IMG/VR virus record: IMGVR_UViG_3300037311_000228
Coordinates: 1-54,323 of that record
Direction: 5' to 3' (one strand)
Source: a virus
Lineage: Duplodnaviria > Caudoviricetes
Length of the DNA: 54,323 nucleotides
The translations under genes and the position numbers were made by a program. The notes beneath the pieces are model-generated. The model did not search any database, was not told the origin of the DNA, and worked only from the letters and a program-made list of their open reading frames with translations. The stretch's first letter is position 1; the number at the start of each line of letters is the position of its first letter. This document shows, piece after piece, positions 2,494-50,007 of the stretch.

Positions 2494-3906
2494 ATGTTTC
2501 GAGGCAGCATCCCACAGGATATGCGCGCGATCCTAAACGAGATGGTCGGCACATGGAACACGCCTGCGATCTATGTCGGCTGCTCCGGCAACTTCACAGT
2601 CGAGCGGGTGCTGGCGGCGCATCAGCGGTTTCGGCTGCACGCGAATGATGTAACGATTTACAGCGGATCAATTGGATCGTACCTCGCTGGACAGCCCTTT
2701 CGCCTGACGCTTCGCCCTGCTTTCGTCGAAACACTTGGATGGCTTGCGCCGTACCTCGACTCGCCTCAGCGCGTCGCGGGGACGATCATGCTGGTGGGGC
2801 GACTGCTCGAAGCCATGCGCGGCGATGGTACGTGGAAGACGAATTCATATTACGAACGTTTTATCCCTGCCTATCGTGCGCAGTGGGAAAGAATGCACGC
2901 GAAGACGTGTAGCCGGATCGACACGCTCGCCGGAATGCTGACCGAATACCATTCGGGAGATGTTGTACCGTGGGCAGCAGCGATCCCCAAAGATGCGGGC
3001 TTCATTTCGTATCCACCCTTTTTCAGCGGCGATTACGAGTCGATGTTCCGCAAGCTCGATCTGGTTTTCGACTGGGACAAGCCGACATTCAGCGACATTG
3101 GCGCGGGCAAAATGCTTGATGCGCTCCGTCCTACCCTCGAACGCGCACACTGGATTCTTGGCTTGAACCACCCACTTGATGAACTTGTGCCGTTCTTGCG
3201 CGGTATGACGCAAACCACGAATCGCGGCGTCCCGATTTATGTCTATTCATCCACTTCGGTACGGCGCGTTGTTATCCCGGCGCAGCAGCTTGATCCTGTC
3301 GCAAACACTCGTCTCGTGCCGGGTCAGGCGCTTGGCACACGTCTTCAGATTGCGCCGCTGACACAGGCGCAGTTCCAAACGCTGCGCTCTGCTTATATGA
3401 ACCCCGGTATCAAGCCCGGTCAACCGTCGGCTGCGTATGCAGTCATGGTTGACGACATTTTGATCGGCGCGTTCGCGCTCAGCGTCGCGCCCAGCAAAGC
3501 AGCAATGGATCGGCATTCGACCGTTTACCTGTTGTCCGACTTTCCTGTCGCGCCTACCGACTACCCGCGTCTGTCCAAGCTCGTGCTTTATGCTGCCCTG
3601 AGCCGCGAGGCGCAACTCCTCGCGGAGCGACTGGCGCGAAAGCGCGTGCGAAGCCTATTCACAACCGCCTTTTCGAACAACCCAGTGTCCATGAAATATC
3701 GCGGCTTATTCGACCTGCACAACCGCCGTGAAAATCCGGATTGGTCGCCGGACGCAGAGCGCGATCCAGCGGCGTATTATCGCCAGCGATACCTGATCAA
3801 TTACGTCGCATCCGTCGGCGCATGGACGCTCGCCGAAGGATTTTCATTATGGACACAAAAACACGGAAAGCGAATGACTGCCGATGTTACCAACACAGAC
3901 CATTGA
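2494..3906 (+). CDS. Putative antirestriction adenine methyltransferase-like protein with a Mom/GNAT-like C-terminal half
   Basis: YVGCSGNFT (motif I-like), SYPPF (motif IV-like); C-terminal YLLSDF...RLSKLV...TTAFS..PVSMKYRG. Confidence 0.7.
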   Translation: MFRGSIPQDMRAILNEMVGTWNTPAIYVGCSGNFTVERVLAAHQRFRLHANDVTIYSGSIGSYLAGQPFRLTLRPAFVETLGWLAPYLDSPQRVAGTIMLVGRLLEAMRGDGTWKTNSYYERFIPAYRAQWERMHAKTCSRIDTLAGMLTEYHSGDVVPWAAAIPKDAGFISYPPFFSGDYESMFRKLDLVFDWDKPTFSDIGAGKMLDALRPTLERAHWILGLNHPLDELVPFLRGMTQTTNRGVPIYVYSSTSVRRVVIPAQQLDPVANTRLVPGQALGTRLQIAPLTQAQFQTLRSAYMNPGIKPGQPSAAYAVMVDDILIGAFALSVAPSKAAMDRHSTVYLLSDFPVAPTDYPRLSKLVLYAALSREAQLLAERLARKRVRSLFTTAFSNNPVSMKYRGLFDLHNRRENPDWSPDAERDPAAYYRQRYLINYVASVGAWTLAEGFSLWTQKHGKRMTADVTNTDH

Positions 3907-4858
3907 TGTTCGGGTCGAGCGGCTCGATCCGGCAGCGATCAAGCTGCTCGACCTCAACGCGCATTTTATGCGCCATGAGACCTTCGCGCGACTGGTCGAA
4001 AATGTGCGCGATGACGGCGCGCTTACCTCGACGCCGTTCTGCTGGCAGCTTCACGATGATACGACCTGCCAACCGCAGTTCAGCGCCGACGGCAGCCCAA
4101 TCTACGAAGTGCTATCCGGCAACCATCGCGTCAAGGCAGCAGTGGCGGCGGGCTTGTCGCTCATCGACTGCCTTGTGACGAATCAATATCTACCCCCAGA
4201 CCGACGCAAAGCGATCCAACTGTCGCACAACGCCATTCACGGCGAAGATGATCCGACGCTTCTTAAGCTGCTCTACGAGGGTATTGAGGATATCGGAATG
4301 CGCCTGTACAGCGGGCTTGATGATAAAGGACTTGGCTTGATGCAGGCGGTAGACATCGCCTCGCTTGGCGAAGCACAGCTCGACTTTCAAACGGTCAGTC
4401 TCGTTTTTCTGCCTGACGAGATTGACCGCATCGATGCGGTGTGGAAAAAGGCGCGGGCGGCGGCGGAGGTGGCGAACCCTGCATGGGTCGCGCGCTGGCG
4501 CGACTATGATCGTGCGCTTGATACGCTCGAACGAACCAGCGCAGCCTACGGCGTGAAGAATACCGCGACGGCGTTGCTGGTCGTTCTCGCTATCGCAGAG
4601 CGCCATCTCGACGATCTTCAAACGGGCTATCTGGACGCGGAAGGCGAACCCGTTGACCCGAAGCGGGGCGTACCCATCGGCAGCGTGTTCAACGAGCTTT
4701 TGATCCCCGCAGCGACAGCGGCGAAGGTGATCAAGGCGATCAAACGCGCCGCACGGCGACTCGGCATTGAGGGAAACGATAGTGCCTCAATCCTCAACGC
4801 ATGGGCGGATAAAGAATTGAACGCAAAGAAGAATGAACAAGGGCACCCATGTCCATAG
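3884..4858 (+). CDS. ParB/Srx-like N-terminal domain protein
   Basis: YEVLSGNHRVKAA and QLSHNAIHGEDD; overlaps both neighbours. Confidence 0.8.
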   Translation: MLPTQTIDVRVERLDPAAIKLLDLNAHFMRHETFARLVENVRDDGALTSTPFCWQLHDDTTCQPQFSADGSPIYEVLSGNHRVKAAVAAGLSLIDCLVTNQYLPPDRRKAIQLSHNAIHGEDDPTLLKLLYEGIEDIGMRLYSGLDDKGLGLMQAVDIASLGEAQLDFQTVSLVFLPDEIDRIDAVWKKARAAAEVANPAWVARWRDYDRALDTLERTSAAYGVKNTATALLVVLAIAERHLDDLQTGYLDAEGEPVDPKRGVPIGSVFNELLIPAATAAKVIKAIKRAARRLGIEGNDSASILNAWADKELNAKKNEQGHPCP

Positions 4859-5382
4859 CAGACAAAAAAGAAGCCAAAAAGCGAAAGGACGTTGAGATCG
4901 AACAACGACGGATGAAGATAGCCGCCAACTATCTCGCCGGGATGGACTACCGCGATACAGCGGCTGCGCTCAACGTGTCCCTCGGTACGGTCGCTGGCGA
5001 CATGAAAGCGATCCTCGGTCAGTGGCAAAAACATTATGCCGCCGATCTCAACAAACGGCAGGCGCTTCAACTCAAGCGCCTTGACGTGATGCTGAATGGT
5101 ATTTGGAAGAAAGCACGCGATGGCGATCTGGCGGCGATAGATCGTGTGCTGAGCATCATGGCGCAAGAGTCGCGCATTTTGGGCTTGGACAAGATCAAAC
5201 TTGACCATACGACCGACGGGAAGCCCATGCCGGGGATCACGGTCGTCAACCCTGTGCTGGCGCTATCAGATGAGCAGGTCACGGCGGCGATGAAACTGCT
5301 GGAACACCTCACCGCGCCGCCTGCGCCCGCCATCGATCTGCCACTGAACACGAGCGGAGCGGTGGAAGGGGGGCAAGTATGA
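4849..5382 (+). CDS. Terminase small subunit
   Basis: N-terminal HTH, GDLAAIDRVL...RILGLD; directly before the large subunit. Confidence 0.8.
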   Translation: MSIADKKEAKKRKDVEIEQRRMKIAANYLAGMDYRDTAAALNVSLGTVAGDMKAILGQWQKHYAADLNKRQALQLKRLDVMLNGIWKKARDGDLAAIDRVLSIMAQESRILGLDKIKLDHTTDGKPMPGITVVNPVLALSDEQVTAAMKLLEHLTAPPAPAIDLPLNTSGAVEGGQV

Positions 5383-6770
5383 CGCTAACCCTGGACGCCG
5401 CGCTGTCTCCGGCTGCAACGCCCGCCGGATTCGGGATGCACGTCTACGGTCTGCGTCCAGCGGCGCATCATTGGCGCTGGCTGCACGCCGCGCTCGACCC
5501 ATCGATCCGCAACCTGAATATCATCGCCCCGCGTGACAGCGCGAAGACGACATGGCTGGCGGAAATTCTCACCCAGTGGGAGATCGGCACCAACCCGCTA
5601 CATCGCATCTTCATCGGCAGCGTGACCGACGATCAAGCCAGCAAGCGCCTTGATGCGATCAAGACCGTGATCGAGTCGAGTGAGCGATGGCGGGAAGTGT
5701 TCCCGCACATTGAGCCGGATTACAAGCGCGGTTGGTCTGGTGACGGTCTGCATGTTCTTGATACTCGATTCGCTTATCGAGACTGGATCGCGCGCGTCGC
5801 ACAGTTCGGCAACCTCAAAGTGCCAAACCTGATGGCGGCGGGCGTGGGCAGCAGTCGCGTGATCGGGTCGCGTTTCACGCGCGTTCGACTTGACGACTTG
5901 CACGACGATAAAAACTCGCTGACTGCGCTACAGCGGGATCGGGTAGATAGTTGGTTGATGCAGACGGTATCCAACACCGTCGAGGCGCGCGGGAAGCAGT
6001 TGATCATCGGCACGCGCTGGCATCGAGACGATGTACCCGGTCGCCTGATGAACAATGGCGAGTGGGTCACCATTGAGGTCAAAGCCATTGATGAGGCGGG
6101 GCGCTCATACTGGGCGGAGCATTGGTCTTTGGAGCGGCTCGAACAGAAAAAGCGCGAGATCGGCGCGCGGCACTTTCGCGCAAATTACATGAATGACCCC
6201 TCAGGGCTGTCTGGACAAATTTTTGACGGCAGTTGGTTTCGCCCCCTGCCGGAGACGCTACCGGAATTTCGGACGGTCGTGCTTGGCGTTGATCTTGCCA
6301 TCAGCGAAAAGCAGAACGCCGACTACACCGTGATCGCTACGCTCGGTTTCGACCATGACGGCAGCATGTACATCCTCGACATTCGCCGCGAACGGTGGTC
6401 GTTTCATCGGCAACAGCAAGCGATCATTGGCGCGGCGATGCGCGCTAAGTCTTTGTATCACCGCTTGGATCGGGTCGGCATTGAGGCGGTCGCGTACCAG
6501 TCTTCGGCGGTGCAGGAACTCATTCGCACGACAGACGATCTTCCTATTCTCGGTATTGCGGCGGATACCGACAAGCTGTCGCGCGCGCGTCTATGGGAAG
6601 TGCGCGCACAGCAAGGCTTGGTGTATGCAGACCGCTCGTCGGCTTGGTGGGGGAATTTCATCGATGAAGCGCTCGACTTCCCGCGCGGGAGCCACGACGA
6701 TCAGATCGATGCTGTTTCGGTTGGTTGGCACGCTGCGGCGCGCCCGAACAGTTTTTCGGAGATATGGTAA
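5379..6770 (+). CDS. Terminase large subunit
   Basis: APRDSAKT Walker A, LDD Walker B, IGTRWH, GVDLA and HDDQIDA nuclease motifs. Confidence 0.95.
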   Translation: MTLTLDAALSPAATPAGFGMHVYGLRPAAHHWRWLHAALDPSIRNLNIIAPRDSAKTTWLAEILTQWEIGTNPLHRIFIGSVTDDQASKRLDAIKTVIESSERWREVFPHIEPDYKRGWSGDGLHVLDTRFAYRDWIARVAQFGNLKVPNLMAAGVGSSRVIGSRFTRVRLDDLHDDKNSLTALQRDRVDSWLMQTVSNTVEARGKQLIIGTRWHRDDVPGRLMNNGEWVTIEVKAIDEAGRSYWAEHWSLERLEQKKREIGARHFRANYMNDPSGLSGQIFDGSWFRPLPETLPEFRTVVLGVDLAISEKQNADYTVIATLGFDHDGSMYILDIRRERWSFHRQQQAIIGAAMRAKSLYHRLDRVGIEAVAYQSSAVQELIRTTDDLPILGIAADTDKLSRARLWEVRAQQGLVYADRSSAWWGNFIDEALDFPRGSHDDQIDAVSVGWHAAARPNSFSEIW

Positions 6771-9700
6771 ATGACAACATTGCCCCACGATCCTCCAAGC
6801 GCGCCGAGCGTTAGTGAACGCATGATGTTTTACACCGTCGGGGATCGCCTCGTACCGTTCTCGGCGCTGCGCGCAAACATCGAATTGGATACGCGCACGA
6901 CGCTGGCATCTGCGCTTTTCGCTGGTGATCACCAGCGCATGAGTGCCTATCCAATGTCCGTGACCGCGTATGCGTGCATCGACTATCGCGCACAAACACT
7001 CGCAGGTATTCCTTGTGCAGTGAAGGACGCCGCTGGAGAAGAGGTCGATTGGCATCCACTCGGCGGCGTGCTGCGCGATCTCCCAACCCTCCTTTGGGAT
7101 GTCGAGGCGGCGCTCTGCATTTGGGGTAAGGCGTATGTGCGCAAGCTGTACAACGCGGCGGGCTATCCCACTGGGTTGCAGTGGCTCAACAACGCGCGCG
7201 TGGAGGAGCAGCAAGACCTATACCGCCAAGTCGTAACTGGCTACTGGCTCGATGGTGTCGAGTTGCTTCCGCCGTCACAGATCATTGCCCTGCGGACGTT
7301 CAACCCTGACCCTTACGCCGCTGACGGGATCAGCGCGCTTGAGGTAGCACTGCGGCGCATCTACACCGAGTCAAACCTCTTGACCTTCGCAGAGCAGTTT
7401 TTCCGCAACGCAGCGCGCCCGGACGGGATGCTGATCGCCAAGGGGCAAATGTCGCAAAGCGAGATCGATACTGCGCGACAGCAGTGGCGCGAATTCAAAG
7501 GCAGTGGGAACGCATGGAAAACTTTCGTATCCGGCGGCGAATGGGAGTGGGTCCCGATCACCCCGCCACCCGCCGATCTTGCGATGACGGAACTGACAAC
7601 GACCATTCGCCGGGACATCTGCATCGCCTTCCGCGTCAACCCTGCACTGATCGGAGCGGGGGATGTTGCCGACTCTCTGTCCGCCTCCTCAACCTTCGAC
7701 GGCATCGAGCGCAACCATCTCGAAGCCGTGACGCTTCCCCGAATGAATTACGTCTTGGGGGAAATGAACCGCCAATGGACGTGGAAAGACTTCGATCCCG
7801 CCGATCACTATACCCTTGTGCCAGATATTGCACAGGTGGCATTGCTCTCCAACACGACGGGTGAGCGCGTCGCAACCGCCGAGACGATGAGCAACCGTCT
7901 GGCGGACTACGACGAATCACGACGGGTGATCGGGTTGCCACCGCGCGGCGGGGACTATCTCAAGCGGAGTGCTGCCGAGCCTTTGGCACTCTGGGCGGCT
8001 GGCGGGATAACGCTCAACCGACTGCGCCAGCTTGTTGGCGAAACCGCTATCCCGTCAGCGGGGGAAGTCATCAATTTGGCGGGGACGCTGCTCCCCGCTG
8101 CCAAGTTGATGGACATCGCCGTCGCCAATGCGGAGCGGTTGATCGCGCCGCCTGCGCCCGCGTTCCCATCGCCCTTTGGTCTGAATGCCCCGCCATCACC
8201 CATGACGCTGCCGTCTGAGGCGGAGACAGAAGCGCGTGCGGATGAATGGACGGATACCGGACTGTGCGTCGCCTTGTCGCTGGCGGATAACCCCGATCTG
8301 ATCGCGCTGCAGGCGCGACTCAGGGCGCTGTACCCGCGCGACGTGGAATGGAACGCGCCGAGTCAATTTCATATCACGCTCGTTTACGCGCCGTCGGTAG
8401 CGGACGATGAGGCGGTGAGGTTGTTGGCGGCGCTGCGCGCGCTATCGCTGCCAGAGCTGGTACTGAATGTGGGGTCGTTGGCGGGGTTTGATACGGTGGG
8501 ACGTCACGCACTGCATTTTCGCATTCGTCAGAATGCGGACTTGTTCGACCTACAAGACGCGATCTACGGTCTGTGCGAGGGGGTTCCGACAAGCCAGCAC
8601 AGCGATCCGGCGGCATACACCCCCCACATCACCATGGGCTATAGCACGATCAAGCCCGCCCGCGTGACCTTCACGGGCAAGGTCAAGGTCAAGCCGCGCG
8701 GACTCATTGTTTGGCACGGCGATAAGGTGCTGTGGCGTTCGGAAGACGAGCCTCAGGCGGGTGAGGCGCTGTCGATGCCGACGACTCGCGCGACAATGGA
8801 CGCTTCCCCATTAGCAACCACCATCTGCCTCGCCCTTGCCGATCACCAGATGATCCGCTATGCACAGCGCGTCCTTGCCGATCAACTTGCCGACGCCGGG
8901 ATCACAGGGGAACGCTACACCGAGTCGTCGGCGTGGTCGCTTCCCCTGCTGAACATTGACGCGCCGACGCCGGGCGCTGCCGCCGGACTCTTGATCACCC
9001 TCAACCCCGATGAATGGGCAGCGGTGGAGGTGCGAACGGGGGCGTACACGCTTGCTGAAGATGGCGCGGTGCTGTTGGAGGTAGCGCCCACCCCCGCGCT
9101 CGACAGCGTGGTTGAGCGATTACGAACGCTGGTTGAAGCGGATGGGTGTTCATGTGAACCGATCTCCCCGCGCGTCAGGTTGGCAACTGGCGTGCCGTCG
9201 GGGACAGTGCTTGATTCGAGCGCCATGCCCGCTGGCGGCTATCCCATCATCGCGCGAACACTCGCGCTTCATTATGGCAGCCGTCAGCTTGGCACATGGA
9301 CGCTGCGGCGCGCCACGCCTGATATGCTCAAAGAGCTTCGACATTGGCGAAGCAAAGTCGAGAAGCGAGGCGCGGGCATCGGTTTTGAGACCTACGCGCT
9401 CGCCGGACACCCGCTCGACGCACAGATACGCGCCTGCCTTGCGCACGGCGTCACGCCCGTGCGGGTTTTCGACGCGGCAATGCGGGCGCTTGTTGACGGA
9501 GATGTCGAGCCGCTAGACGATCTGACGCCAAGCCCAGAAGCATATACAGCATGGTGGAAATCTTATGACGACCTTCAGCATAATCTGGGCGCTGCATGGC
9601 TCGACATGATGGGGCGCGCCTTTGATGCACTTCCAGATACGTTCAACGAAGAATACGATCCGCTGCGATTGCTGACCAAGATGCAGAAGCCGCTGATAGA

Positions 9701-10310
9701 ATCGTGGATCGGCACGCCAGATGAACCGGGCGATCTGACCAAACTGATCTTGGCGGGCATGGCAGCGGGGAACACGGCGCTCAAGCGTGAAAGCGCCGCG
9801 CGCCCCTCCAAACGCGCGCTGACCCTGACGCCTGACTGGGAGCTGCTCAGCACTCAAGCCCTCGCTTTCGCACAGGTGTATGGATACACGCTCATTCGCG
9901 GTATCAACGCGACCACCGCCGCGCAGGTGCAGCAGATCATCGCCGACTGGATCATGACCGGAGAATCCGTCGAGGCGCTCCGCGCTCTCTTGCTCCCTGT
10001 GTTCAAGAACCCTCACCGCGCCGAACTCATCGCTCAAACAGAAAGTATTCGCGTGTTCAACGAAGGGGCGTTCGAGCGTTGGCGTGGTGTTGGCGTGACC
10101 CAAGCGACATGGCAGACGGTCAACGATGCGCACGTCTGCCCGATCTGTCAGCCGCTGCACGGTACGGTCGGGAGCGTTGATACGGGTTGGACGCATCCGG
10201 GCGGCGCGGATGACGCGGCGCGCTTTGCGGGGAAAACATATACCGCCTCAGCACATCCCGGTTGCCGTTGTTTCCGGCGTCCGAAACTCGACTCAATTGG
10301 AGCGGACTGA
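6771..10310 (+). CDS. Portal protein fused to a 2H phosphoesterase, a probable degenerate second 2H-like domain and a MuF (gpF-like) minor head domain
   Basis: Portal: YACI..RA, FFRNAARPDG, ICIAFRVNPALIG; 2H: HITL (8370) and HITM (8625); MuF: RAELIAQTE, WQTVNDAHVCPIC, AHPGCRC. Confidence 0.88.
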   Translation: MTTLPHDPPSAPSVSERMMFYTVGDRLVPFSALRANIELDTRTTLASALFAGDHQRMSAYPMSVTAYACIDYRAQTLAGIPCAVKDAAGEEVDWHPLGGVLRDLPTLLWDVEAALCIWGKAYVRKLYNAAGYPTGLQWLNNARVEEQQDLYRQVVTGYWLDGVELLPPSQIIALRTFNPDPYAADGISALEVALRRIYTESNLLTFAEQFFRNAARPDGMLIAKGQMSQSEIDTARQQWREFKGSGNAWKTFVSGGEWEWVPITPPPADLAMTELTTTIRRDICIAFRVNPALIGAGDVADSLSASSTFDGIERNHLEAVTLPRMNYVLGEMNRQWTWKDFDPADHYTLVPDIAQVALLSNTTGERVATAETMSNRLADYDESRRVIGLPPRGGDYLKRSAAEPLALWAAGGITLNRLRQLVGETAIPSAGEVINLAGTLLPAAKLMDIAVANAERLIAPPAPAFPSPFGLNAPPSPMTLPSEAETEARADEWTDTGLCVALSLADNPDLIALQARLRALYPRDVEWNAPSQFHITLVYAPSVADDEAVRLLAALRALSLPELVLNVGSLAGFDTVGRHALHFRIRQNADLFDLQDAIYGLCEGVPTSQHSDPAAYTPHITMGYSTIKPARVTFTGKVKVKPRGLIVWHGDKVLWRSEDEPQAGEALSMPTTRATMDASPLATTICLALADHQMIRYAQRVLADQLADAGITGERYTESSAWSLPLLNIDAPTPGAAAGLLITLNPDEWAAVEVRTGAYTLAEDGAVLLEVAPTPALDSVVERLRTLVEADGCSCEPISPRVRLATGVPSGTVLDSSAMPAGGYPIIARTLALHYGSRQLGTWTLRRATPDMLKELRHWRSKVEKRGAGIGFETYALAGHPLDAQIRACLAHGVTPVRVFDAAMRALVDGDVEPLDDLTPSPEAYTAWWKSYDDLQHNLGAAWLDMMGRAFDALPDTFNEEYDPLRLLTKMQKPLIESWIGTPDEPGDLTKLILAGMAAGNTALKRESAARPSKRALTLTPDWELLSTQALAFAQVYGYTLIRGINATTAAQVQQIIADWIMTGESVEALRALLLPVFKNPHRAELIAQTESIRVFNEGAFERWRGVGVTQATWQTVNDAHVCPICQPLHGTVGSVDTGWTHPGGADDAARFAGKTYTASAHPGCRCFRRPKLDSIGAD

Positions 10311-10816
10311 TGGACATCCAAAGCTCCAAGGTTGATGCACTGCTCGATAATCTCCGCCAGCGCGCGCCTGATCGTAAGCTGGTGCTGATCGTGCTGGAGC
10401 GCGTGGCGCGCAAGATCGGGGCTGCGGCAGAAGCAAGTGTTAGCGCCTATCCGCCACCGAGCGGGAAGCCGATGCCCGCAGTCTATGATCGCATTGACGC
10501 ACAAGGCAACCCATACAAGAGCAAGTTTAAGCGCGGCGAGATACGCATCCCGTATCGCCGTACAGGGCGGTTGGGGGCATCGATCACCAGCGATATCGAG
10601 GTCAAGAGTGCCGACGCCAGTGCCAGCACTTTTGTCGGCACGAACGTGGCTTATGCCCCCTACGTGATCGGGACACCCGGCGCGATGCCGGGTCAAGCGC
10701 CGTATCACACTGGAACATGGACGCCTCTAGAAGATGACTTGCTGCGCGGACAAGCCAAAATCACCAGCGCAGCCGAACAGGAGTTGGATCGTGCCGTCAA
10801 TGCGCTTATTCCATAG
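10310..10816 (+). CDS. HK97 gp10-like / virion morphogenesis protein
   Basis: RTGRLGASI and VGTNVAYAPYV motifs; ATG overlaps the upstream stop. Confidence 0.75.
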   Translation: MDIQSSKVDALLDNLRQRAPDRKLVLIVLERVARKIGAAAEASVSAYPPPSGKPMPAVYDRIDAQGNPYKSKFKRGEIRIPYRRTGRLGASITSDIEVKSADASASTFVGTNVAYAPYVIGTPGAMPGQAPYHTGTWTPLEDDLLRGQAKITSAAEQELDRAVNALIP

Positions 10817-13049
10817 ATCGTCTTTGTCGCCGCGTCGGGCGGCGATCACCGCGCTTGATGATGTGCTGGGCGAGATCGAGGGGTATATCCACGTTTGGAA
10901 CCCGCCCGGCTCAGTCGATGAGTATGGGACGTGGTTTGATCGCGAGTCGCCACCCGAACTGGCGCTCGACTTTTTGCCCCTCCCCGTTAGCTACGAACAC
11001 GCGATGGACAAGATCGTCGCTAAAGAGATCGTCGGCAAAATTGAACGGCTCTGGTTCGATGACGTGGGGCTGCGCTTCAGCGCGCAACTCAACCGCGCAT
11101 CTCCATTCTTTCAGCGCATTGTCAATGAAATTCGCGCAGGCAAGCTGGCAACCTCCTCCGCCACAGCCGAGCATTTGTCTGAATTCGACGCCGACGGGCG
11201 CTTCGTCAAATGGTGGCTGTCCGAGTTGGCATTGACAGCCGATCCAGCCGAGAATACGATGCCTATTGTGACGCTCGTTCGTTCTATGCCACGAGGTGCG
11301 GGGAATCCGCACGGCGCTGACGATGGAGCGCGAACCGTTACGAGTACAGGACAAAGAAATATGGAGATCAACCAGATCATCGCCGACGCGATGGCAGCGG
11401 GGGCGTCCCCGCAAGAGATCATCGCCGCACTTACGGCGCAAGGGATCAGTGTCGAAGACTTGATGGCGCTGCTTCAGCAAGCCGCGCAACCCGCACCCGA
11501 AGCAGAAGCGACCTTGAGCGCGCCCGTCGCGCCGTCCGCACAACCGAACGTCGCGCAAACTGCCGCCAGCGCGCTGGCGCAGTTGATCCAAAGCGGCACG
11601 GGCGGGCAGCGCCGCGCGCCGAACACTGCATCCGATCCGATGGCGGGGCAGATCGCCGCGCTTCAGCAGCAGGTCGCCTTGATGCAAGCCTCACAGCGTC
11701 AGCAGCAAGCCGCGCCGCCCGTGTCACCGCAGAACGCCGCCACCCCGCGTGGACGCAGCGACGTGTTTGTCGTTGATCCCTATGCCCACCTGACTCCGGC
11801 ACAGATGGCAACCGCCTACGCGCTGATGATGTCGTCGCCACAGCGCGAACGCAGCGACGAGCGGAGCGGCGCGAGCGAACCGTTCATGCGCGCGATGACC
11901 TACAAAAGTGCCGTGGCGGCGGAAGCGGGCGATCCGGTCAACGGCAATTACGCTGTTCGTTCGCTCTTCCCCGGTATGTCTGGGCGCGGCGGACGACCGC
12001 TGCGCGCCAACGAAGCGATGCAGTCGAACTTGAGCGGGTTTGGGGACGAGTGGGTGTACGCCTTGCAGGGGACGTCCATTTGGGAGGCGCTGCGCGCCGA
12101 AACGCGGCTTTTCGATCTGATGCAGCAGAAGGGGATGGAAGTCCGCGAGTTGCCCATGGGGTTCGAGGGCGAGACCGTCCCGCTCGAGGGCGCAGATATG
12201 ACGTGGTACGTGGCGGGACAGGCGGCGGATGAAGATGCGAGCAGCGGGATGCTCACGCCGACCTTCAGCCCGTCCAAGGTGCCTACGCCCACCTCGAAAA
12301 CCATTTCTATCGCCAAGCTGTCCGCGCGTACACCGTGGACCGCGGAGCTGAACGAGGACAGCTTCGTCAACATGGCGGCGGAGATCGAGCGGAAGGTTCG
12401 CGTGAGCGGCGCGGAGCAGATCGAGTCCATCCTGCTCAATGGCGACACCGATCCGACCGCGAACACGAACATCAACCTGATCGATGGGACGCCCGCCGCT
12501 GCGCCCGCGCGTCCCGCTTACACACTGCTCAATGGGCTGCTCAAGTTGGCGTTGGTCACGAACACGGGTAATTCCCGCGCGTGCGGAGCGATCTTCGACG
12601 AACTCGACTTTTTGGAGACGCTCAAGATGCTCCCCGTGAAGTCCCGCACTGATCGCGCGAAGCTGCTCTACATCCTCGACCCCGACACGGCGTTGGTCGC
12701 CGCGAACATTCCGGCGGTCAAAACGCGGGACTCGTTCTCGCCTGCGACGCTCGAACAAGGCAACCTGACGAGCATCTACCGGATCGACGTGTACGAGTCG
12801 GCGTACCTCGCTCTCGCCAACACCGTCGGCAAGATCAGCGGCACAGCGGGAAATAACATGCACGGTCGTTTGACCATCGTGCGCCCAGACCAGTGGGCAT
12901 TCCGCTGGAAGCGCAAGATGAAAACCGATCTGGCGTATACGCCGCGCAGCGACTCGTATGAAGTCGTCGTCCACATGCGCTTGGGGTGGGTGTCGCGCGA
13001 CAACGAAGCCTCCGCTGTGACCTATGGCATCCCGCAGGCACTGGTCTAG
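10800..13049 (+). CDS. Prohead protease-scaffold-major capsid fusion
   Basis: Protease D..G..F, YEH, VGKI, SELALT..PA; Q/A-rich scaffold; HK97-fold ELNEDS, ILLNGD, NGLLK; in-frame internal ATG with RBS at 11361. Confidence 0.85.
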   Translation: MRLFHRSSLSPRRAAITALDDVLGEIEGYIHVWNPPGSVDEYGTWFDRESPPELALDFLPLPVSYEHAMDKIVAKEIVGKIERLWFDDVGLRFSAQLNRASPFFQRIVNEIRAGKLATSSATAEHLSEFDADGRFVKWWLSELALTADPAENTMPIVTLVRSMPRGAGNPHGADDGARTVTSTGQRNMEINQIIADAMAAGASPQEIIAALTAQGISVEDLMALLQQAAQPAPEAEATLSAPVAPSAQPNVAQTAASALAQLIQSGTGGQRRAPNTASDPMAGQIAALQQQVALMQASQRQQQAAPPVSPQNAATPRGRSDVFVVDPYAHLTPAQMATAYALMMSSPQRERSDERSGASEPFMRAMTYKSAVAAEAGDPVNGNYAVRSLFPGMSGRGGRPLRANEAMQSNLSGFGDEWVYALQGTSIWEALRAETRLFDLMQQKGMEVRELPMGFEGETVPLEGADMTWYVAGQAADEDASSGMLTPTFSPSKVPTPTSKTISIAKLSARTPWTAELNEDSFVNMAAEIERKVRVSGAEQIESILLNGDTDPTANTNINLIDGTPAAAPARPAYTLLNGLLKLALVTNTGNSRACGAIFDELDFLETLKMLPVKSRTDRAKLLYILDPDTALVAANIPAVKTRDSFSPATLEQGNLTSIYRIDVYESAYLALANTVGKISGTAGNNMHGRLTIVRPDQWAFRWKRKMKTDLAYTPRSDSYEVVVHMRLGWVSRDNEASAVTYGIPQALV

Positions 13050-32969: not shown

Positions 32970-33860
32970 TCAAGCCCGCTCATCGATGTACGCGGCGGCG
33001 ATGACTTGAATGAACCGCGCCGCGATGATTCGCCGCGCCGCCGCTTCTACCTTGTCCGCGCCCGCCCACATGTTGGCGCGCGCTTCCGCCGTCGGGGCCG
33101 GTACGCCCGATGCGTGCATCGCGGCGCGCATACGCGCCTGTGCCGCGTACATCGAAGCGCGCGCCCCCTCTATCGCGGCATTCACCGCCTCTGCCATCGC
33201 CCACGCCAGCGACGCTGGACTGGGCTTACCCGTCAGCAACGCCAGCGACGCTTCCGCCGCCAGCGACGCCGCTAACGCCGCCGCGCGCGGTGCCGGTAGA
33301 TAGAACGGCGGCGGAAGCGTCGCCGCCCACGCCGCGCGCGCCTCCTCCGCCGCCGCCGCCCATTCTTCGACGGGCGGCATGACGCCCGTTTCGCCGCATC
33401 GGGCGAACAGACATTGGACGCCCGCTACCGCGTCGCGCACGCGGCGCGGCGCGGCATCCGTGGTGAGCGCCTGACGCATCACGCCGTCGGGGGACAGCAG
33501 CCACGCCATGAATTTGTGTGTGGCGCGCCACAAGTCCCCGCCGACGGGGATCGTCTCAAAGAAGGCGACGGCGAAGTCCGCCGCTTCTTTGGCGGGCAAG
33601 CGCTCGAAGATGCGATCTTGAGCCTGCGCCAGAGGCTCTGGGATGCCCAAAAACTCTTGGGCTAAGTTGTAGTCGGATGCCTCAATCGCGCATCCGATGG
33701 CGCTCCCGCGCCATTCTCCGCTTTCCTCGTCCATATCCCAGTACTCATACTGGGATATGCGACCTGCCGCGCGATGCGCGTTCATGCGCGCGACCAGTTC
33801 CGCCTTGACAGCGGGAGATCCGTGATATGCGCGCATCGACGCGCCGTTCGATTCAGTCAT
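32970..33860 (-). CDS. Ala-rich hypothetical phage protein
   Basis: AYHGSPAVK...AHRAAG...GC...GIP...DRIFERLP; AGGAG RBS. Confidence 0.7.
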   Translation of the reverse strand: MTESNGASMRAYHGSPAVKAELVARMNAHRAAGRISQYEYWDMDEESGEWRGSAIGCAIEASDYNLAQEFLGIPEPLAQAQDRIFERLPAKEAADFAVAFFETIPVGGDLWRATHKFMAWLLSPDGVMRQALTTDAAPRRVRDAVAGVQCLFARCGETGVMPPVEEWAAAAEEARAAWAATLPPPFYLPAPRAAALAASLAAEASLALLTGKPSPASLAWAMAEAVNAAIEGARASMYAAQARMRAAMHASGVPAPTAEARANMWAGADKVEAAARRIIAARFIQVIAAAYIDERA

Positions 33861-33973
33861 GATCTTCTCTCCTGCGCGTATCCATGCGCGCCCCGGATTC
33901 GTTGACGAGAGCCCGTTGCCGATGCCGATCCCGCTCTGCATACGCGGGCGACGGCACGAACGGGAACTTGCAA

Positions 33974-34046
33974 TGCCCCTAGCAGGACTCGAACCCGCGA
34001 CGCGCTGCTTAGAAGGCAGCCGCTCTATCCGCTGAGCTACAGGGGC
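33974..34046 (-). tRNA. tRNA-Arg (anticodon UCU); CCA not encoded
   Basis: Cloverleaf: GCCCCTG/TAGGGGC acceptor, GCTGC-CTTCTAA-GCAGC anticodon arm, GGTTCGAGTCC T arm. Confidence 0.93.
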
Positions 34047-34152
34047 GGATGCTCCGGCGGGTTGTCCGCCGGAGGGTGATGCTATTCGGCGGCGGGATAT
34101 TGCGCGTCCCCCGCCGTCGGACTCGAATCGCGGCAGGCGCCATCCGCGCGAT

Positions 34153-34467
34153 TTATTTGCCTGGCAGATGCTTCGGGAACCGCGCGCGGGCATAGGCGCG
34201 CAATATCTCCAGCGGGCAGCCTTCATAGACGACAGTTGCCCCATCAATCTCATTCGGGAGATTGATGGGGTCGATCATCACTTCCCCGTATCCGGTCCAC
34301 TCGTCGCCCGAATACGGTGGCTTGACCGGAAATGCTCGAATATCCCCCTCCCGGTACTCGACGAAGTAGAACGGGACCTCTTCTACTTCCGACGAAACTA
34401 CCCGCCCCGATAAGTACGTCCCCATCGTGGAGACGTGGCATTTGACCATCTTCATCCTGATATCCAT
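34153..34467 (-). CDS. Hypothetical protein
   Basis: AAGGA RBS; 104 aa ORF. Confidence 0.65.
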   Translation of the reverse strand: MDIRMKMVKCHVSTMGTYLSGRVVSSEVEEVPFYFVEYREGDIRAFPVKPPYSGDEWTGYGEVMIDPINLPNEIDGATVVYEGCPLEILRAYARARFPKHLPGK

Positions 34468-37338: not shown

Positions 37339-38244
37339 TCATTTCGGCGTTCCGCTGCCGTTTTCCACGACAGCTTGACGCGCCGCCTGCTCGCGGAGAT
37401 CACCGATCACTGCATAGACGGTAGACTTTCCAACCTCCAACCGAGCCGCCAATTCCAGCGGTTTCACAGTATCCAATTCGTCAGGGTGGGCGGCGAAATA
37501 GGCTTCGACCTTCGCGCGCGCGTCCGCCGACTTTCGATGACCTAAGCTTGGAATGGAAGCCGCGCCGAGAAATTCCGTTCCGTTTCCATTGGAATTTCCA
37601 TTGGAAGGGGAATGGAATGGAATGGAATTGGGTAGTTGTGGAACAGCTTGGGTTGCCAACTTGCGCTCAACGCGCTGTTGGTGCTTGACCCATTCTGTGT
37701 TTACGCGCTCGTCCCATGCGATCTGCTCATCCCGATAGCGGGAAGCCGCCTCAACGCCTTCATTCCGACCACTGGCTGACATGTGGACAAACATCTCGCC
37801 TGATGCCAGTGCGATGAGTGGAACGCCGATGCCCAAAATGAAGGCGACGACCCCTGCACCGCCGTCGCCTGTACTTGCGAGCGCGCGGCTGGTCGAGACG
37901 ACATTCGCCACCAGTGCTACGACAAACGTCACGCCCATGATGATGTACGCCAAGCCGGGCGAGCGGCGACGCAACGATGCGCTGACGAAGATCGCCAATT
38001 CGATGGCGAAAAACCCACCGACGGCGATCACGTCGCCCACGAGCGGTGCAACATCTTCTTCCAGTCCCCGTCGGATCGTAGGGACGGTGTGTGCGCCTGA
38101 GAGCAGCGCGGCGCACACAAACATGATCAGCACTCCGGCTCGGAGCAATACGGGATATTCACTCGCGTGCTTGATCTTGCGCGGCACGGAGGCAGGGTGC
38201 TGGCGCTCGTATTCGCGCCGAAATTGCTCATACGTCATATTCAC
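37339..38244 (-). CDS. Four-TM membrane protein with C-terminal HTH
   Basis: Four hydrophobic segments; PLELAARLEVGKSTVY. Confidence 0.75.
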   Translation of the reverse strand: MNMTYEQFRREYERQHPASVPRKIKHASEYPVLLRAGVLIMFVCAALLSGAHTVPTIRRGLEEDVAPLVGDVIAVGGFFAIELAIFVSASLRRRSPGLAYIIMGVTFVVALVANVVSTSRALASTGDGGAGVVAFILGIGVPLIALASGEMFVHMSASGRNEGVEAASRYRDEQIAWDERVNTEWVKHQQRVERKLATQAVPQLPNSIPFHSPSNGNSNGNGTEFLGAASIPSLGHRKSADARAKVEAYFAAHPDELDTVKPLELAARLEVGKSTVYAVIGDLREQAARQAVVENGSGTPK

Positions 38245-39392
38245 GCGCTCTCCTCCTTAGGCGCGGGCAGTCCGCGCACAATGTTGTCGTCGGCATCGCG
38301 GATGATCCAAGCGCGGGCGAGATTGCGCGCCGACATGCGCATGGCATCTTCGTATGTCGGACCAACTTGCGGCGAGAATGTCCGCAAGTTGGTCCGACAC
38401 CATTTGCCCTGCGTCCACACCGTCTTGTATTGCGCGGCGCGCTGCTGCGTGTTTGCGTCCGCAGATCGCACAATCCCGCCTGATCCGGCAACCTTGCGCT
38501 GTGCGTCTAAAATGACACTTGGCGAGCCACCCAAGAGGTGAATGCTGCGACCTGCCAAATCCCGCATCGGCGGCATATAGCCCGCGTAGCCTGACGGGAC
38601 GCTAATGGCGACGGTGCAATCGATTGGGATGTCACCGATTGCGCTGTCGAATTTTGGACACACCATGATGCGCAAGACGCCTTCGGCGCGCAGATCGGCG
38701 ACTTGTTGCAGCATAAGATCGCGCTGATCGGGGCGCTCGTAATCTGCGACCATTGCCGCGACGGGTCGCCATCGGCGGATTTTGTCCATGTAATTCATCC
38801 AATCGTACTTGTCCCACCGGATGTCAACCATAAACGGATGATCGCGCGGTAGCATGTCGTGGCGCGTGCCATACGCCACGCCGATTTGCTTGGCAATCAG
38901 CGGGATTTGGCGGTTGTTGCCTTGCACCCAGATCATTAGGACACGACGGCTAAACACCGTAAGTTGACGACCAGTCTTCGAGACCGCCTGCGCGATCTCC
39001 CGAAACCCCGCCGCGCGGTAGAACGCGCACGACGCACGGTTGTCTGTCAAGCATTTCAGCTTGATTGGACACGGGACCGCGTATAGCAATTGGCGTCCAA
39101 TACCAATGCCCTGCCAGCCTCGTGCTGTCGCCAGATGGTATACAACGCTGTAGCCTGCGTTTTCGCCCCGTGATGGCGTGCCGTATTCGACGAATGCGCG
39201 CACCACGCCGTCGATAGCGGCGACCAGCAGCGTTCCGCCTGCTAACGCGCGCTCAAGGCTGTCGCGGCGTACCCATCCAAGCGCGTCGGGATGCTGGCGC
39301 GCAATTTGGTCGCATACGCCAATGTCGTCGCGGGTTGCGCGGCGAATATGGAGGCGTCCAAGCAACGCCGTCACGGGCGGAAGCAACTTCAT
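38241..39392 (-). CDS. GNAT acetyltransferase fused to a DUF6610-like / TGT-like TIM-barrel domain
   Basis: IRRAT..D, QGIGIGRQLL, N.ASCAFYRAAGF; then VDIRW, ADYE, VCPK, IHLLGGSP, SADAN. Confidence 0.72.
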   Translation of the reverse strand: MKLLPPVTALLGRLHIRRATRDDIGVCDQIARQHPDALGWVRRDSLERALAGGTLLVAAIDGVVRAFVEYGTPSRGENAGYSVVYHLATARGWQGIGIGRQLLYAVPCPIKLKCLTDNRASCAFYRAAGFREIAQAVSKTGRQLTVFSRRVLMIWVQGNNRQIPLIAKQIGVAYGTRHDMLPRDHPFMVDIRWDKYDWMNYMDKIRRWRPVAAMVADYERPDQRDLMLQQVADLRAEGVLRIMVCPKFDSAIGDIPIDCTVAISVPSGYAGYMPPMRDLAGRSIHLLGGSPSVILDAQRKVAGSGGIVRSADANTQQRAAQYKTVWTQGKWCRTNLRTFSPQVGPTYEDAMRMSARNLARAWIIRDADDNIVRGLPAPKEESA

Positions 39393-39548: not shown

Positions 39549-40661
39549 TCATGACGCGATCTCGTGATCAAATTTAACAATACGTTCACCGATCCATTTT
39601 GCGACTGGCACGCATACTGCATTGCCAAGCATTTGATACCGCGCGCTGTCTGACACCAATTTCCCGTTTTCACAGAACGCCGTCCACCCATCGGGGAAGC
39701 CTTGCAGGCGCTCACACTCTATTGGCGTCAGTCGTCGAACGCCGATAAGCGATCCGCTGATAACGATTTCGCCGCCACCATCACCTCTTACTAAGGTGGG
39801 GGTGATGTTTTTGCCAATCGGCATATGATGTGACACGCTGGCATTGCGCTTGAAAGCCACCAGATCGGAACTTCGTGTCAATGTTGGCGCGTAATGTCGC
39901 GGCACACTGCCGTTGGCGATACTCGTCACCTGCTGCAAGTCCACAATGAGGAAATCCGCCTCGTTTGCTTGCCCCGCCGGACGTGCTGTTCCCGCGCCTG
40001 ATCCCGCCAGCGTTCCGGCGATCACAGGGGTGGATCGTTCGAGTCGTCTAGGATGATTTTCTCCAGAGCCTCTATAAGCGGATAGGGCAGCGTCTTCCCC
40101 CTTTTGTCGGCGCGACGGAGAATGCCCGCCGCTGCTTTCGCGCTCAAAAAGTACTTCAGCGGCACGCCCGCCTCCAAGATGTCCGACAATGAACAGGCGG
40201 CGGCGGCGCTGTGGGACTCCCCAATGTTGAGCGTCCAACACGCGCCAAGCGACGCGATACCCGATGTTCCCCAGCCCGCGAAGGACAACGGCAAAGTCCC
40301 GTCCTCCATTAGAGGATAGTAGACCGGGGACGTTTTCGATAACGACCCATCGAGGTAGAAGCTCCATAAGAACGCGCTCGAACTCAAACCAGAGCCCAGA
40401 TCGCGCTCCAGCCAACCCCGCGCGGCGTCCGGCAACGCTGAGGTCTTGACAGGGGAATCCGCCGCAAATAAGGTCAACTGGCGGAAGGTTGGTTTTTCCG
40501 ACATGGCACACATCCTTGAATTGAAGGACGGAAGGGTAATGACGACGGAGGACGCGCCGCTTTTTGGCGTTCGACTCGACCTGCGCGGCGCAAGTCATAC
40601 CCGCGCGCTCAAAGCCCAAGTCGAAGCCGCCAATGCCTGCAAAAAGGCTGATGAAACGCAT
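39549..40661 (-). CDS. DNA cytosine-5 methyltransferase (alpha chain)
   Basis: FAGIGG, GGFPCQ, ENV, QRRRR and LGNAV motifs. Confidence 0.95.
   Translation of the reverse strand: MRFISLFAGIGGFDLGFERAGMTCAAQVESNAKKRRVLRRHYPSVLQFKDVCHVGKTNLPPVDLICGGFPCQDLSVAGRRAGLAGARSGLWFEFERVLMELLPRWVVIENVPGLLSSNGGRDFAVVLRGLGNIGYRVAWRVLDAQHWGVPQRRRRLFIVGHLGGGRAAEVLFERESSGGHSPSRRQKGEDAALSAYRGSGENHPRRLERSTPVIAGTLAGSGAGTARPAGQANEADFLIVDLQQVTSIANGSVPRHYAPTLTRSSDLVAFKRNASVSHHMPIGKNITPTLVRGDGGGEIVISGSLIGVRRLTPIECERLQGFPDGWTAFCENGKLVSDSARYQMLGNAVCVPVAKWIGERIVKFDHEIAS
40022..40504 (-). CDS. Nested alternative-frame methyltransferase beta polypeptide
   Basis: SLSDILE..VPLKYFLS.KAAAGILRRA..RGKTLP..L.EAL, resembling the M.EcoHK31I-type beta chain. 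Confidence 0.75.
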   Translation of the reverse strand: MSEKPTFRQLTLFAADSPVKTSALPDAARGWLERDLGSGLSSSAFLWSFYLDGSLSKTSPVYYPLMEDGTLPLSFAGWGTSGIASLGACWTLNIGESHSAAAACSLSDILEAGVPLKYFLSAKAAAGILRRADKRGKTLPYPLIEALEKIILDDSNDPPL

Positions 40662-41848
40662 CACGCAGCACCTCCCACTGACTTGGCGCGTGCCGCTTTC
40701 GCGCGCTGGCGATACCGCGCCGCCTGTACGCGCGCAAAACGGCGATAGTCGATCTGCAAATGCAGCACCCCCCATTGCTGCACGTCCCATTGGCTGCCAC
40801 CCTCGCTCAGCTCTGTCGCTTCGCGTTCTTTCGCCGCCGCCATCGCGTTGAGCGCGGCGACGTGTTCGCGCATCGATACGGGGGCTTCTGCGCCATTGGC
40901 GAAATAACGCGCCTTCGCCAACAGATAGTCGCGGTCTGCGCCGTCGGGCAGCGACTCGGCTTCACGGCAATATCCGTTGGCGATGGACTGGCTGTCCGCC
41001 AACATCGCTTGTGCATAGCGCGCGCGATCTTTGTCCGTCCAGACCACGCCGTCGATCCGCGCAGACAGTGGGACGGCGAGCCTATCTGTAGAGCTGTTCA
41101 TCGGTACGGCGGGCGCATCGAACAACGAGTGCGGCGGCGTTTCAACGCCGATGGCATCTACATAGGTTGGCGTTCCCCATGCGTGCGATCCGGCGCGCCG
41201 GGCGGTATTCCACGCCGTCCGATACAACGCCTCATCATGTCGCTGCTCTGGGTTGATGAAGGGCAAGCCGAACAGCGCGTAGAAGGCGGCTTCGTCGGGG
41301 ACGCTGATCCGCTTGTCGCTGTGCCAAACGCTGCCTTCACGGATGGTGTACGGGCAGTCCATGAATTTGAGCTCGGCAGCGAGACTCTGCGCGCGTGCTG
41401 CCGCCTCTTCACGGATGGTGTACGGGCAGTCCATGAATTTGAGCGCCTTCATGAACCATTTATTCTTGTCGGCGCTGCCCGTGCGCAGCCAATAGATGTA
41501 GCCCCACGAGTGCGCGTTCGTCACCCACAGCTCGATCTTCATGCCGTCCATGACGACGCCGCGCAGCTTGTCACCCCATTGATGCTGAGGCTTCATATTG
41601 CCGATCTTGTCACGCGACTCGCCGTACACCGCCTTCGCCAGCGTGCCGTCAGCGACCATACGATCTAGCGCATCAAGATAGCCGACGGACGGGATCAGCA
41701 CGATCTCGCCGTCGCCCACATCGGGCTTGCATCGCCGGATCGATCCGGCGATCTCGGCGCGCTCTACATACGGCGCGATGAGGGTCAATAGGCGCTCGAC
41801 CCGTTGTCGGGCGTCACTGAGGGGGTAGCGCGCGCCGCTAGACATCAT
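40661..41848 (-). CDS. PolX / DNA polymerase beta-like nucleotidyltransferase
   Basis: IAGSIRR.K.DVGDGE, RTGS, E..FY..FGLPFINPEQR. Confidence 0.85.
   Translation of the reverse strand: MMSSGARYPLSDARQRVERLLTLIAPYVERAEIAGSIRRCKPDVGDGEIVLIPSVGYLDALDRMVADGTLAKAVYGESRDKIGNMKPQHQWGDKLRGVVMDGMKIELWVTNAHSWGYIYWLRTGSADKNKWFMKALKFMDCPYTIREEAAARAQSLAAELKFMDCPYTIREGSVWHSDKRISVPDEAAFYALFGLPFINPEQRHDEALYRTAWNTARRAGSHAWGTPTYVDAIGVETPPHSLFDAPAVPMNSSTDRLAVPLSARIDGVVWTDKDRARYAQAMLADSQSIANGYCREAESLPDGADRDYLLAKARYFANGAEAPVSMREHVAALNAMAAAKEREATELSEGGSQWDVQQWGVLHLQIDYRRFARVQAARYRQRAKAARAKSVGGAA
41335..41444. repeat. 38-bp exact direct repeat flanking a 34-bp insert inside polX
   Basis: 41335-41372 equals 41407-41444. 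Confidence 0.95.
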
Positions 41849-46606: not shown

Positions 46607-47130
46607 CAGTAGCTCCTTTCGTGGTTGCGTTCCGCAACTTGGATAAACAAATTCCCTGTCCCCCCGTGCGCCCGATCCCCGCCCGCGAAGTCGCATTTGA
46701 CTTGGAGGCGCACTGACGCGCGCAAAAGGAGGTCTGTCCCCGCGATCTGCATTTCTAGATCGCGGACAACTTCCTGCGACAGTGGCAGCGCGATCAACCC
46801 CGCCGCGATCCCCGCCTGCACCAGCTTGAGGGCAAGCAGTCCCTTTTCTGAGGGGCGCATGTCCGCGCGGATCGGGTACGCGCGCCACATGCTAAGAGTG
46901 AGCGCAAAACTTTGACACCCGGGGATGTCATCTGGCGGGACGAGATATCCCTCTGCTGTCAGGCGTCCGTTGATGTAGACCGGGACGCGGCGATAGCGCG
47001 TCAGCGGCATCGCCTGCGCCGCCGTCGTCGCGTAGACATACACGCGGCGCGCCATGGGACAGACGTGCGCACGCACATCGCTTTGCTCGGCGATGATCCC
47101 GTAGGGGATCAGACCTTCGTGAGCGATCAT
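46606..47130 (-). CDS. Hypothetical protein, possible PD-(D/E)xK nuclease fold
   Basis: QIAGTDL...QVKCD...TGNLFIQ. Confidence 0.5.
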   Translation of the reverse strand: MIAHEGLIPYGIIAEQSDVRAHVCPMARRVYVYATTAAQAMPLTRYRRVPVYINGRLTAEGYLVPPDDIPGCQSFALTLSMWRAYPIRADMRPSEKGLLALKLVQAGIAAGLIALPLSQEVVRDLEMQIAGTDLLLRASVRLQVKCDFAGGDRAHGGTGNLFIQVAERNHERSY

Positions 47131-50005: not shown

Positions 50006-50007
50006 GA

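Follow-up and report, generated by a model that had tools for sequence, protein, structure and literature searches.

Phosphoesterase domains of the 2H type fused to MuF or portal proteins of phages have been described before, and the relevant passages of Iyer et al. (2017, PMC5512222) proposed for them either an RNase role or the degradation of 2'-5' oligoadenylate or other defence nucleotides. The RNase role was favoured there because 2H sits where PBECR RNase domains do in portal/MuF fusions, and such 2H domains were stated never to accompany RNA ligases. In parts of a later article (Iyer et al. 2022, PMC9503650), the fusions were taken to suggest packaging in the head and injection to oppose signalling by SMODS, cyclic mononucleotides and CRISPR. 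The idea of a virion-borne enzyme acting against immune signalling is not new, having already been printed as a prediction in both papers. Here, we analysed a window of 54,323 bases, the whole of IMG/VR virus record IMGVR_UViG_3300037311_000228 (Caudoviricetes), in which a single open reading frame (ORF) of 1179 amino acids (aa) plus TGA stop (6771..10310, + strand) comprises a portal, an apparently active 2H domain, a degenerate second 2H domain and a MuF module. New here are the tandem of active and dead 2H domains, the recognition of MuF at full length, the number of family members and their restriction to portal fusions, and the figures for conservation.

At this locus, an enzyme domain shares its chain with portal and MuF within the packaging gene cluster, as in the polyvalent, head-packaged class of Iyer et al. 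Shared with that class, as far as the passages concerned describe it, are the presence of 2H in one chain with portal and MuF, the position beside the terminase and the lack of a linked RNA ligase; a tandem dead 2H copy is not mentioned in these passages, the comparison being with the text and not with Fig. 5B or the supplements. MuF proteins bind the portal and lie in the capsid, muf genes are usually found behind portal genes, and binding to the portal is described for gp7 (Jamet et al. 2017, PMC5576092, in the sections on these proteins). The C-terminal 330 aa of the fusion are like MuF/SPP1 gp7 by Pfam, PHROG, NCBIfam and fold. In the MuF polymorphic toxins treated in the same sections, a variable domain follows MuF, whereas here the enzyme lies between portal and MuF and the 1179-aa protein ends ~12 aa past the MuF core. 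Tails of the toxin kind do occur in relatives P0003, P0004, P0005, P0007 and P0008 (HExxH) and P0009 (ADP-ribosyltransferase). Portal and MuF form one gene in cultured Microbacterium phages of clusters EA3/EA5/EA8 and EB, for which the sections of Jacobs-Sera et al. (2020, PMC7302621) on these genes mention no enzyme between the two parts. The locus studied here in effect has a tandem 2H cassette placed at the junction of such a portal-MuF fusion.

Two groups of described enzymes are closest to the inserted domain. LigT/ThpR proteins and the Deinococcus radiodurans cyclic phosphodiesterase (CPDase) have the same fold (Z 17.8 and 17.0, respectively) and the same HxT/HxT tetrad, but their identity to the portal-borne domain is just 14-19% and the domain here is embedded in a virion protein. 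Acb1 of phage T4 and Erwinia phage FBB1, a nuclease directed against CBASS, the antiphage system that signals by cyclic oligonucleotides, combines an HxT/HxT tetrad with a C-terminal lid that closes over the ligand, and cleaves 3'3'-cyclic GMP-AMP (cGAMP) and cyclic trinucleotides (Hobbs et al. 2022, PMC9117128, in the parts dealing with the enzyme). It resembles the domain studied here in being a phage 2H enzyme with the same tetrad and in fold (Z 11.7, 137 aligned residues, 23% identity), and differs in being, according to those parts, a free protein of ~150 aa with the lid at its C-terminus.

The single 1179-aa ORF at 6771-10310 noted in an earlier, sequence-only reading was confirmed on the + strand, its ATG starting right behind the TAA that ends the large terminase gene. 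Scanning the whole protein against Pfam returned four families: Phage_portal, 2_5_RNA_ligase2 (aa 532-628, E 1.2e-10), LigT_PEase (aa 508-570, E 2.1e-5) and Phage_Mu_F. The portal and MuF calls of that reading were borne out by matches above the Pfam cut-offs, with PHROG in agreement. The portal module, of HK97/gene transfer agent (GTA) type, occupies aa 1-458 (6771..8144, +), with a Pfam core at aa 65-383 (PF04860, E 4.7e-33, 115.2 bits against a cut-off of 39.1) and hits to PHROG portal families. It also matched the RcGTA portal 6tba, at E 1.2e-8 as a single sequence and E 1.8e-41 as a family profile, while TIGR01537 scored 66.3 bits, under its equivalog cut-off of 112. That the ORF begins at 6771, directly after the large terminase end at 6770, is a gene position typical of a portal.

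A Pro/Ala-rich linker follows (aa 459-495; 8145..8255, +), the C-terminal end of which is predicted to be disordered. The Pro-rich stretch recognised earlier indeed holds 9 Pro in 24 residues (aa 459-482); in the model described below, the predicted local distance difference test score (pLDDT) of this linker falls below 50 at model residues 1-5 and 9-12, and among aligned relatives the linker differs in length and sequence. A second linker, between the two 2H domains (aa 659-678; 8745..8804, +), is likewise predicted to be disordered (pLDDT < 50 at model residues 188-199) and contains T-R-A (aa 672-674), relatives having [TQ]-R-[AS] just before domain 2. As a candidate Acb1-like lid or protease site, this motif was rejected, since no more than 61 of 173 tails contain it, against a mean of 41 and a maximum of 52 after shuffling; among the rows listed, it stands on the N-terminal border of domain 2 in proteins that carry this domain.

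The first 2H phosphoesterase domain (aa 496-658; 8256..8744, +) has the catalytic tetrad present. Its two HxT motifs, HITL at aa 534-537 (H534-I-T536, 8370..8378, +) and HITM at aa 619-622 (H619-I-T621, 8625..8633, +), stand at exactly the positions given for them earlier (aa 534 and aa 619). When aa 480-670 were searched alone, PF13563 gave 49.1 bits (cut-off 27) and PF02834 30.5 bits (cut-off 23.3). The middle region (aa 480-880), aligned with 50 relatives and folded by AlphaFold2 (AF2), yielded a model of two separate alpha/beta domains linked by a disordered stretch, with a mean pLDDT of 88.3 and mostly > 90 in the domain 1 block. Comparison of this predicted structure with Acb1 and LigT, the check proposed in the sequence-only reading, returned the 2H fold. 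The best match of domain 1 in the VIA structure search was 4qak_A, named 'phosphoesterase' (Z 17.8, root-mean-square deviation (rmsd) 2.3, 155 residues), followed by the D. radiodurans CPDase 5h7f_A (Z 17.0), human Usb1 (Z 16.6), a phosphodiesterase of phage BCSR5 (Z 12.0) and Acb1 7t27_A (Z 11.7, rmsd 3.5, 137 residues), the last at the highest identity, 23%; folds other than 2H scored Z ≤ 4.8 for the middle region. Foldseek against PDB produced 42 matches at E ≤ 1e-3, those listed being nearly all 2H-fold proteins, with LigT 5ldo at E 1.3e-5. Viral phosphodiesterases of immune signals were among the fold matches, namely Acb1, mouse hepatitis virus (MHV) ns2, rotavirus VP3 and the penguinpox cGAMP phosphodiesterase. 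As for the BCSR5 phosphodiesterase (structures 9q2y/9q2g), the titles and abstracts listed for literature mentioning this phage did not deal with the enzyme. On the strength of the predicted model, the 2H fold can be assigned to domain 1 with confidence.

Conservation of the active site points the same way. The first HxT is present in 176 of 183 aligned relatives and the second, as HxT or HxS, in 177; both motifs are kept in 173 of the 183 domain-1 copies, the exceptions being four fragments and six substitutions. Of the 179 full copies, 173 have an unbroken tetrad, across relatives sharing as little as 24-55% identity. Judged by this pattern, the active site of domain 1 is under selection, and the domain is apparently a catalytically competent 2H phosphoesterase.

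The similar-sized, His-less domain reported to follow is real, and itself a predicted 2H fold. Domain 2 (aa 679-849; 8805..9317, +) is catalytically degenerate, with W722/L724 in place of the first H/T and R801/R803 in place of the second; the WSLPLL and PRVRLA motifs named earlier lie at aa 722-727 and aa 800-805. No Pfam family matched it at E ≤ 10. Its homology to domain 1 emerged from a global hhalign comparison of the two profiles (98.0% probability, E 1.8e-12, 157 columns), in which W722/L724 pair with H534/T536 and R801/R803 with H619/T621. The closest structures were the Pyrococcus horikoshii 2'-5' RNA ligase 1vgj_A (Z 15.9), AKAP18 (Z 15.5), a 2H-like mitoribosomal protein (Z 15.0) and MHV ns2 (Z 13.7). 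In 48 near-full copies of domain 2, the first former His position is occupied by W (38), F (5), Y (3) or L (2), and the second by G in 29, H in 7 and other residues in the rest. As the first motif has neither His nor T/S in any of these copies, a full tetrad occurs in 0 of 48. By profile alignment and model, domain 2 is a diverged, catalytically dead duplicate of domain 1. It may hold a nucleotide ligand or RNA, given that 46 of 48 copies have an aromatic residue where the catalytic His once stood, and may equally be only a spacer.

The C-terminal part of the fusion (aa 850-1179; 9318..10307, +) constitutes a full-length minor head protein module like MuF/SPP1 gp7, in which Cys residues cluster at the C-terminus. 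Phage_Mu_F (PF04233) matches aa 1052-1167 (E 1.3e-10, 42.4 bits against a cut-off of 29.6), a PHROG search of the fusion protein gave head morphogenesis families, and TIGR01641, at 37.4 bits, was just under its cut-off of 39.65. Folding of aa 850-1179 by AF2 from an alignment with 35 relatives gave pLDDT 88.2 and a predicted template modelling score (pTM) of 0.75. This model had 95 matches at E ≤ 1e-3 among the predicted viral structures of BFVD, and most of those with names were labelled 'head morphogenesis' or 'minor capsid' (~250-300 aa, aligned over ~265-290 columns); a PDB fold search returned only helical-bundle matches at Z ≤ 9.3 and was uninformative. Profile and predicted-structure matches together indicate that the last 330 aa are a complete MuF/gp7-type head protein, extending beyond the ~110-aa Pfam core.

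Eight close relatives (33-43% identity) came out of a word-index search of 5.8 billion clusters; portal and MuF are present in each of them and 2H in seven. The eighth, P0009, is without domain 1, retains domain 2 and has an ADP-ribosyltransferase after MuF. Conserved HExxH (HE[IV]GH) modules form the C-terminal ~300-400 aa, after MuF, of P0003, P0004, P0005, P0007 and P0008, and an ADP-ribosyltransferase exoenzyme domain is present in P0009, P0175 and P0190. Because relatives add HExxH or ADP-ribosyltransferase modules after MuF, the portal-2H-MuF chain is, by domain content, also a carrier of variable C-terminal effector modules. To collect the wider family, all 1.84 billion cluster representatives (clustered at 50% identity) were scanned by HMMER with aa 480-880 as query; 341 proteins scored E ≤ 1e-3, 157 ≤ 1e-10 and 81 ≤ 1e-30. 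The best 150 of the 341 are mostly 640-1628 aa long, with the match usually past ~aa 400-600; the shorter minority among these 150 are probably fragments. A search with domain 1 alone gave 51 matches, in which precomputed annotation places a portal domain in all 51, MuF in 15 and ADP-ribosyltransferase in 2; in JGI, some carry the name 'HK97 family phage portal protein/2'-5' RNA ligase'. When 191 proteins were pooled, 184 matched the domain-1 profile, 53 of them also domain 2, and six matched domain 2 only.

The MuF end is more variable. Ten further relatives have portal and 2H and no Pfam MuF, and in many relatives of 880-1000 aa (e.g. P0020, P0022, P0028, P0030) the 2H is followed by ~250-350 aa without a Pfam MuF match, which share only a short helix segment with the C-terminal part of the fusion (hhalign 86%, 45 columns). 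Hidden Markov models built from nine sequences for counting MuF across the family were too insensitive. Free-standing relatives of domain 1 at E ≤ 1e-3 were absent from 5917 candidates of 90-289 aa, in a shared-word search that distant ones may escape. Against 50,697 GenBank phage records, tblastn with domain 1 gave nothing at E ≤ 0.01; the whole protein matched 111 records by its portal part only (≤ 32% of the query, identity < 60%), none of them covering 80% of the query. By fold search, Microbacterium and Gordonia phages were named as candidates for culturable phages with a large head protein bearing 2H. A scan of genome contigs for prophages found 13 loci, in metagenome-assembled genomes of Patescibacteria, Omnitrophota and Gammaproteobacteria and in one Arthrobacter. 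The matches were short (~550-2100 nt), and those reaching the MuF end (1400-2100 nt) are taken, by their length, as direct portal-MuF fusions without a 2H insert. As far as these searches reach, the portal-2H fusion is common in metagenomes, and the enzyme domain is one that belongs with head proteins.

Portals are dodecamers whose C-terminal crown faces the capsid interior, and an extension at this end should therefore lie inside the head, in up to 12 copies. Every procapsid would then carry the 2H enzyme at portal stoichiometry, which means 12 copies where no subunit is truncated. By a rough estimate, 12 × ~80 kDa amounts to ~1 MDa or ~1% of the interior of an assumed T=7 head, so that space would be no obstacle. 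The Pro-rich or the inter-domain linker would most likely be cut during head maturation, candidate cutters being the S78 prohead protease of the neighbouring gene and, in the long relatives, the HExxH module. The freed 2H-2H'-MuF piece might exit with the DNA, as is thought for MuF-linked effectors. The enzyme would hydrolyse a nucleotide second messenger of host defence, late in the cell that makes the phage as well as on entry into the following one; candidate substrates are CBASS cyclic di- and trinucleotides, type III CRISPR cyclic oligoadenylates, and 2'-5'-linked or 2',3'-cyclic species. Packaging, cleavage, ejection and substrate are all steps that we infer. We put the probability that the portal-borne 2H enzyme degrades defence signal nucleotides at roughly 40%, in view of the recurrent architecture, the 2H fold, the conserved tetrad, the effector-bearing relatives, the lack of RNA-repair partners and the precedent of viral 2H enzymes. 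The most specific form of this proposal, in which 12 active 2H domains paired with dead ones are cut by a protease, ejected with MuF and destroy cyclic-oligonucleotide alarms before phage gene expression, is as a whole unlikely.

Several points weigh against degradation of defence signals, among them the kinship of domain 1. Among solved structures and NCBIfam models, its nearest relatives by sequence are RNA 2',3'-cyclic phosphodiesterases. At E 6.3e-4, the family profile found that of D. radiodurans (5h7e) in PDB; the penguinpox cGAMP phosphodiesterase matched weakly (E 0.049), and no Acb1 chain appeared at E ≤ 10. The Pfam Acb1 model (PF23474) scored 12.5 bits (E 0.13), below its cut-off of 27; it reached 17.3 bits on relative P0003, and relative P0159 has a precomputed match to it. 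Furthermore, a pTM of 0.53 for the two-2H model makes the placement of domain 1 relative to domain 2 unreliable; a literature search made mostly via listings found no experiment testing a 2H enzyme borne by the portal or the virion; and no defence system can be attributed to the phage. Timing and release count on the same side: newly made fusion protein would appear late, the gene being in the late packaging module, and an uncut enzyme would remain tethered to the portal and could not enter the next host, delivery requiring proteolytic release. The closest competing explanation is that the packaged 2H acts on RNA, either on 2',3'-cyclic ends left by metal-independent host nucleases or as a Usb1-like RNase effector on host or defence RNAs early in infection. 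This is where the best sequence relatives point (5h7e, and TIGR02258 for ThpR at E 2.4e-10), as do the top fold matches to LigT, the D. radiodurans CPDase and Usb1 (Z 16.6-17.8, greater than the Z 11.7 of Acb1); the dead second 2H could hold RNA, and the passages of Iyer et al. preferred an RNase from the PBECR-equivalent position (PMC5512222). Yet ThpR stays, at 40.6 bits, under its equivalog cut-off of 65.7, the gain for the phage from a lone cyclic phosphodiesterase is not evident, and a search of the complete record found no RNA ligase, RtcB or KptA that would finish a repair, an absence that fits the remark in the same passages on 2H domains without RNA ligases. We regard a role on RNA as somewhat unlikely. 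According to the profile scores, domain 1 is a distinct LigT-like clade, neither a ThpR ortholog nor a member of the Acb1 family. The sequence scores lower the case that it is an Acb1, not the case that it may work like Acb1. Automatic annotation already leans to the former, as a 1134-aa protein of an uncultured phage is named 'Anti-CBASS protein Acb1' in BFVD. Of the earlier interpretation, the domain calls and the His-less copy hold, whereas its assignment to Acb1 and CBASS is not specifically supported.

CBASS or Avs-type sensors can be set off by head proteins, and the enzyme might work in the producing cell only, where fusion to the portal would time its synthesis to the build-up of head proteins, packaged copies being tethered and inert. 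One unbroken ORF with no hint of a separate product and a gene within the late packaging module accord with this, as does the status of linker cleavage as inference only. Closure of the shell would however enclose the C-terminal extension, so that only unassembled protein could act; moreover, the class thought to be ejected includes both MuF, the fusion partner, and the modules (ADP-ribosyltransferase, HExxH) found in relatives, and the phage encodes a prohead protease. Restriction to the producing cell appears quite improbable to us. That the 2H domains are purely structural, as spacers or an internal scaffold around the portal, would explain why the second 2H is retained despite its lost catalytic residues and why six of 179 full-length domain-1 copies carry tetrad substitutions, but it sits badly with the retention of both H-x-T/S motifs in the other 173 at 24-55% identity. 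Since P0009 and a few others are without domain 1, this domain is dispensable for assembly and would be kept for something else, and a purely structural role seems very improbable. An assembly or frameshift artefact joining portal, 2H and MuF genes, one of the conditions under which the sequence-only reading would have failed, has a negligible probability: the single-ORF layout is found in eight close relatives from other assemblies, two independent IMG/VR contigs have the same gene order, and the arrangement recurs in hundreds of cluster representatives (341). The remaining probability is reserved for substrates outside those considered, and degradation of defence signals is the reading that we carry forward.

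The surroundings of the fusion are those of a head gene. Upstream lie a small terminase-like helix-turn-helix protein (4849-5382, +; phrog_645, E 1.2e-19) and the adjoining large terminase subunit TerL (5379..6770, +; phrog_38, E 2e-88; Terminase_6C). The label 'Rnase E' of phrog_645 appears misleading at a gene position adjacent to the terminase. Downstream, the ATG of a small ORF (10310..10816, +) overlaps the stop of the portal fusion (TGATG); Pfam and PHROG searches gave no family for it. Next comes a 771-aa ORF (10734..13049, +) with weak matches to S78 prohead serine protease (PF04586, E 0.0019, aa 45-144) and to the HK97-type major capsid protein (PF05065, E 6.8e-4; phrog_10, E 5.5e-8). 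The two are parted by an Ala/Gln-rich, scaffold-like stretch, and the ORF looks like a protease-scaffold-capsid fusion. IMG/VR contigs L002 and L003 show terminase, one long ORF (1484 and 1189 aa, respectively) and capsid gene in the same order. In L003, a 725-aa ORF takes the position equivalent to the 771-aa ORF, and there is no ORF ≥ 150 aa where the small ORF would stand.

The record is 100% complete according to CheckV and has linear ends. Its gene content suggests a tailed phage that is temperate, the latter because a large serine recombinase (Resolvase plus Zn_ribbon_recom; 52581-54176, +) is encoded at the record end; DnaB is also encoded. A 470-aa protein (2494-3906, +) matching PF22555 'DAM-like-phage1' (E 1.1e-74) and PF22559 'GNAT-phage-like' (E 3.6e-52) is followed, just upstream of the terminase genes, by a ParB-like/phrog_7405 protein (3884-4858, +), and the two genes may form a DNA-modification module. 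On the - strand are a 978-aa protein with a C-terminal MT-A70 methyltransferase (47127-50063), a C5 cytosine methylase (39549-40790) and a GNAT plus DUF6610 protein (38241-39392); together with the Dam-like gene, these make a heavy DNA-modification load for a 54-kb phage. A tRNA-Arg(TCT) (33974-34046, -) lies inside the listed ORF 32970-34253 (-), which has no Pfam family and may not be a gene over its full length.

Acb1 and Apyc1 are described as free proteins made once infection is under way, while an enzyme forming part of the portal would already be there at entry, and also at the very time when head proteins build up. If the portal-borne 2H is indeed cut, ejected and destructive to signals, it would be, as far as the literature was searched, the first enzyme carried in the virion to act against immune signalling by nucleotides. 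Given a large family confined to portals and no BLAST relative in the 50,697 GenBank phage records, a strategy common among phages may have escaped testing because no model phage carries the portal-2H fusion. The tandem of active and dead 2H domains provides a defined construct for biochemistry, and an outcome in favour of RNA-end processing or of a tethered enzyme would still reveal the purpose of portal extensions.

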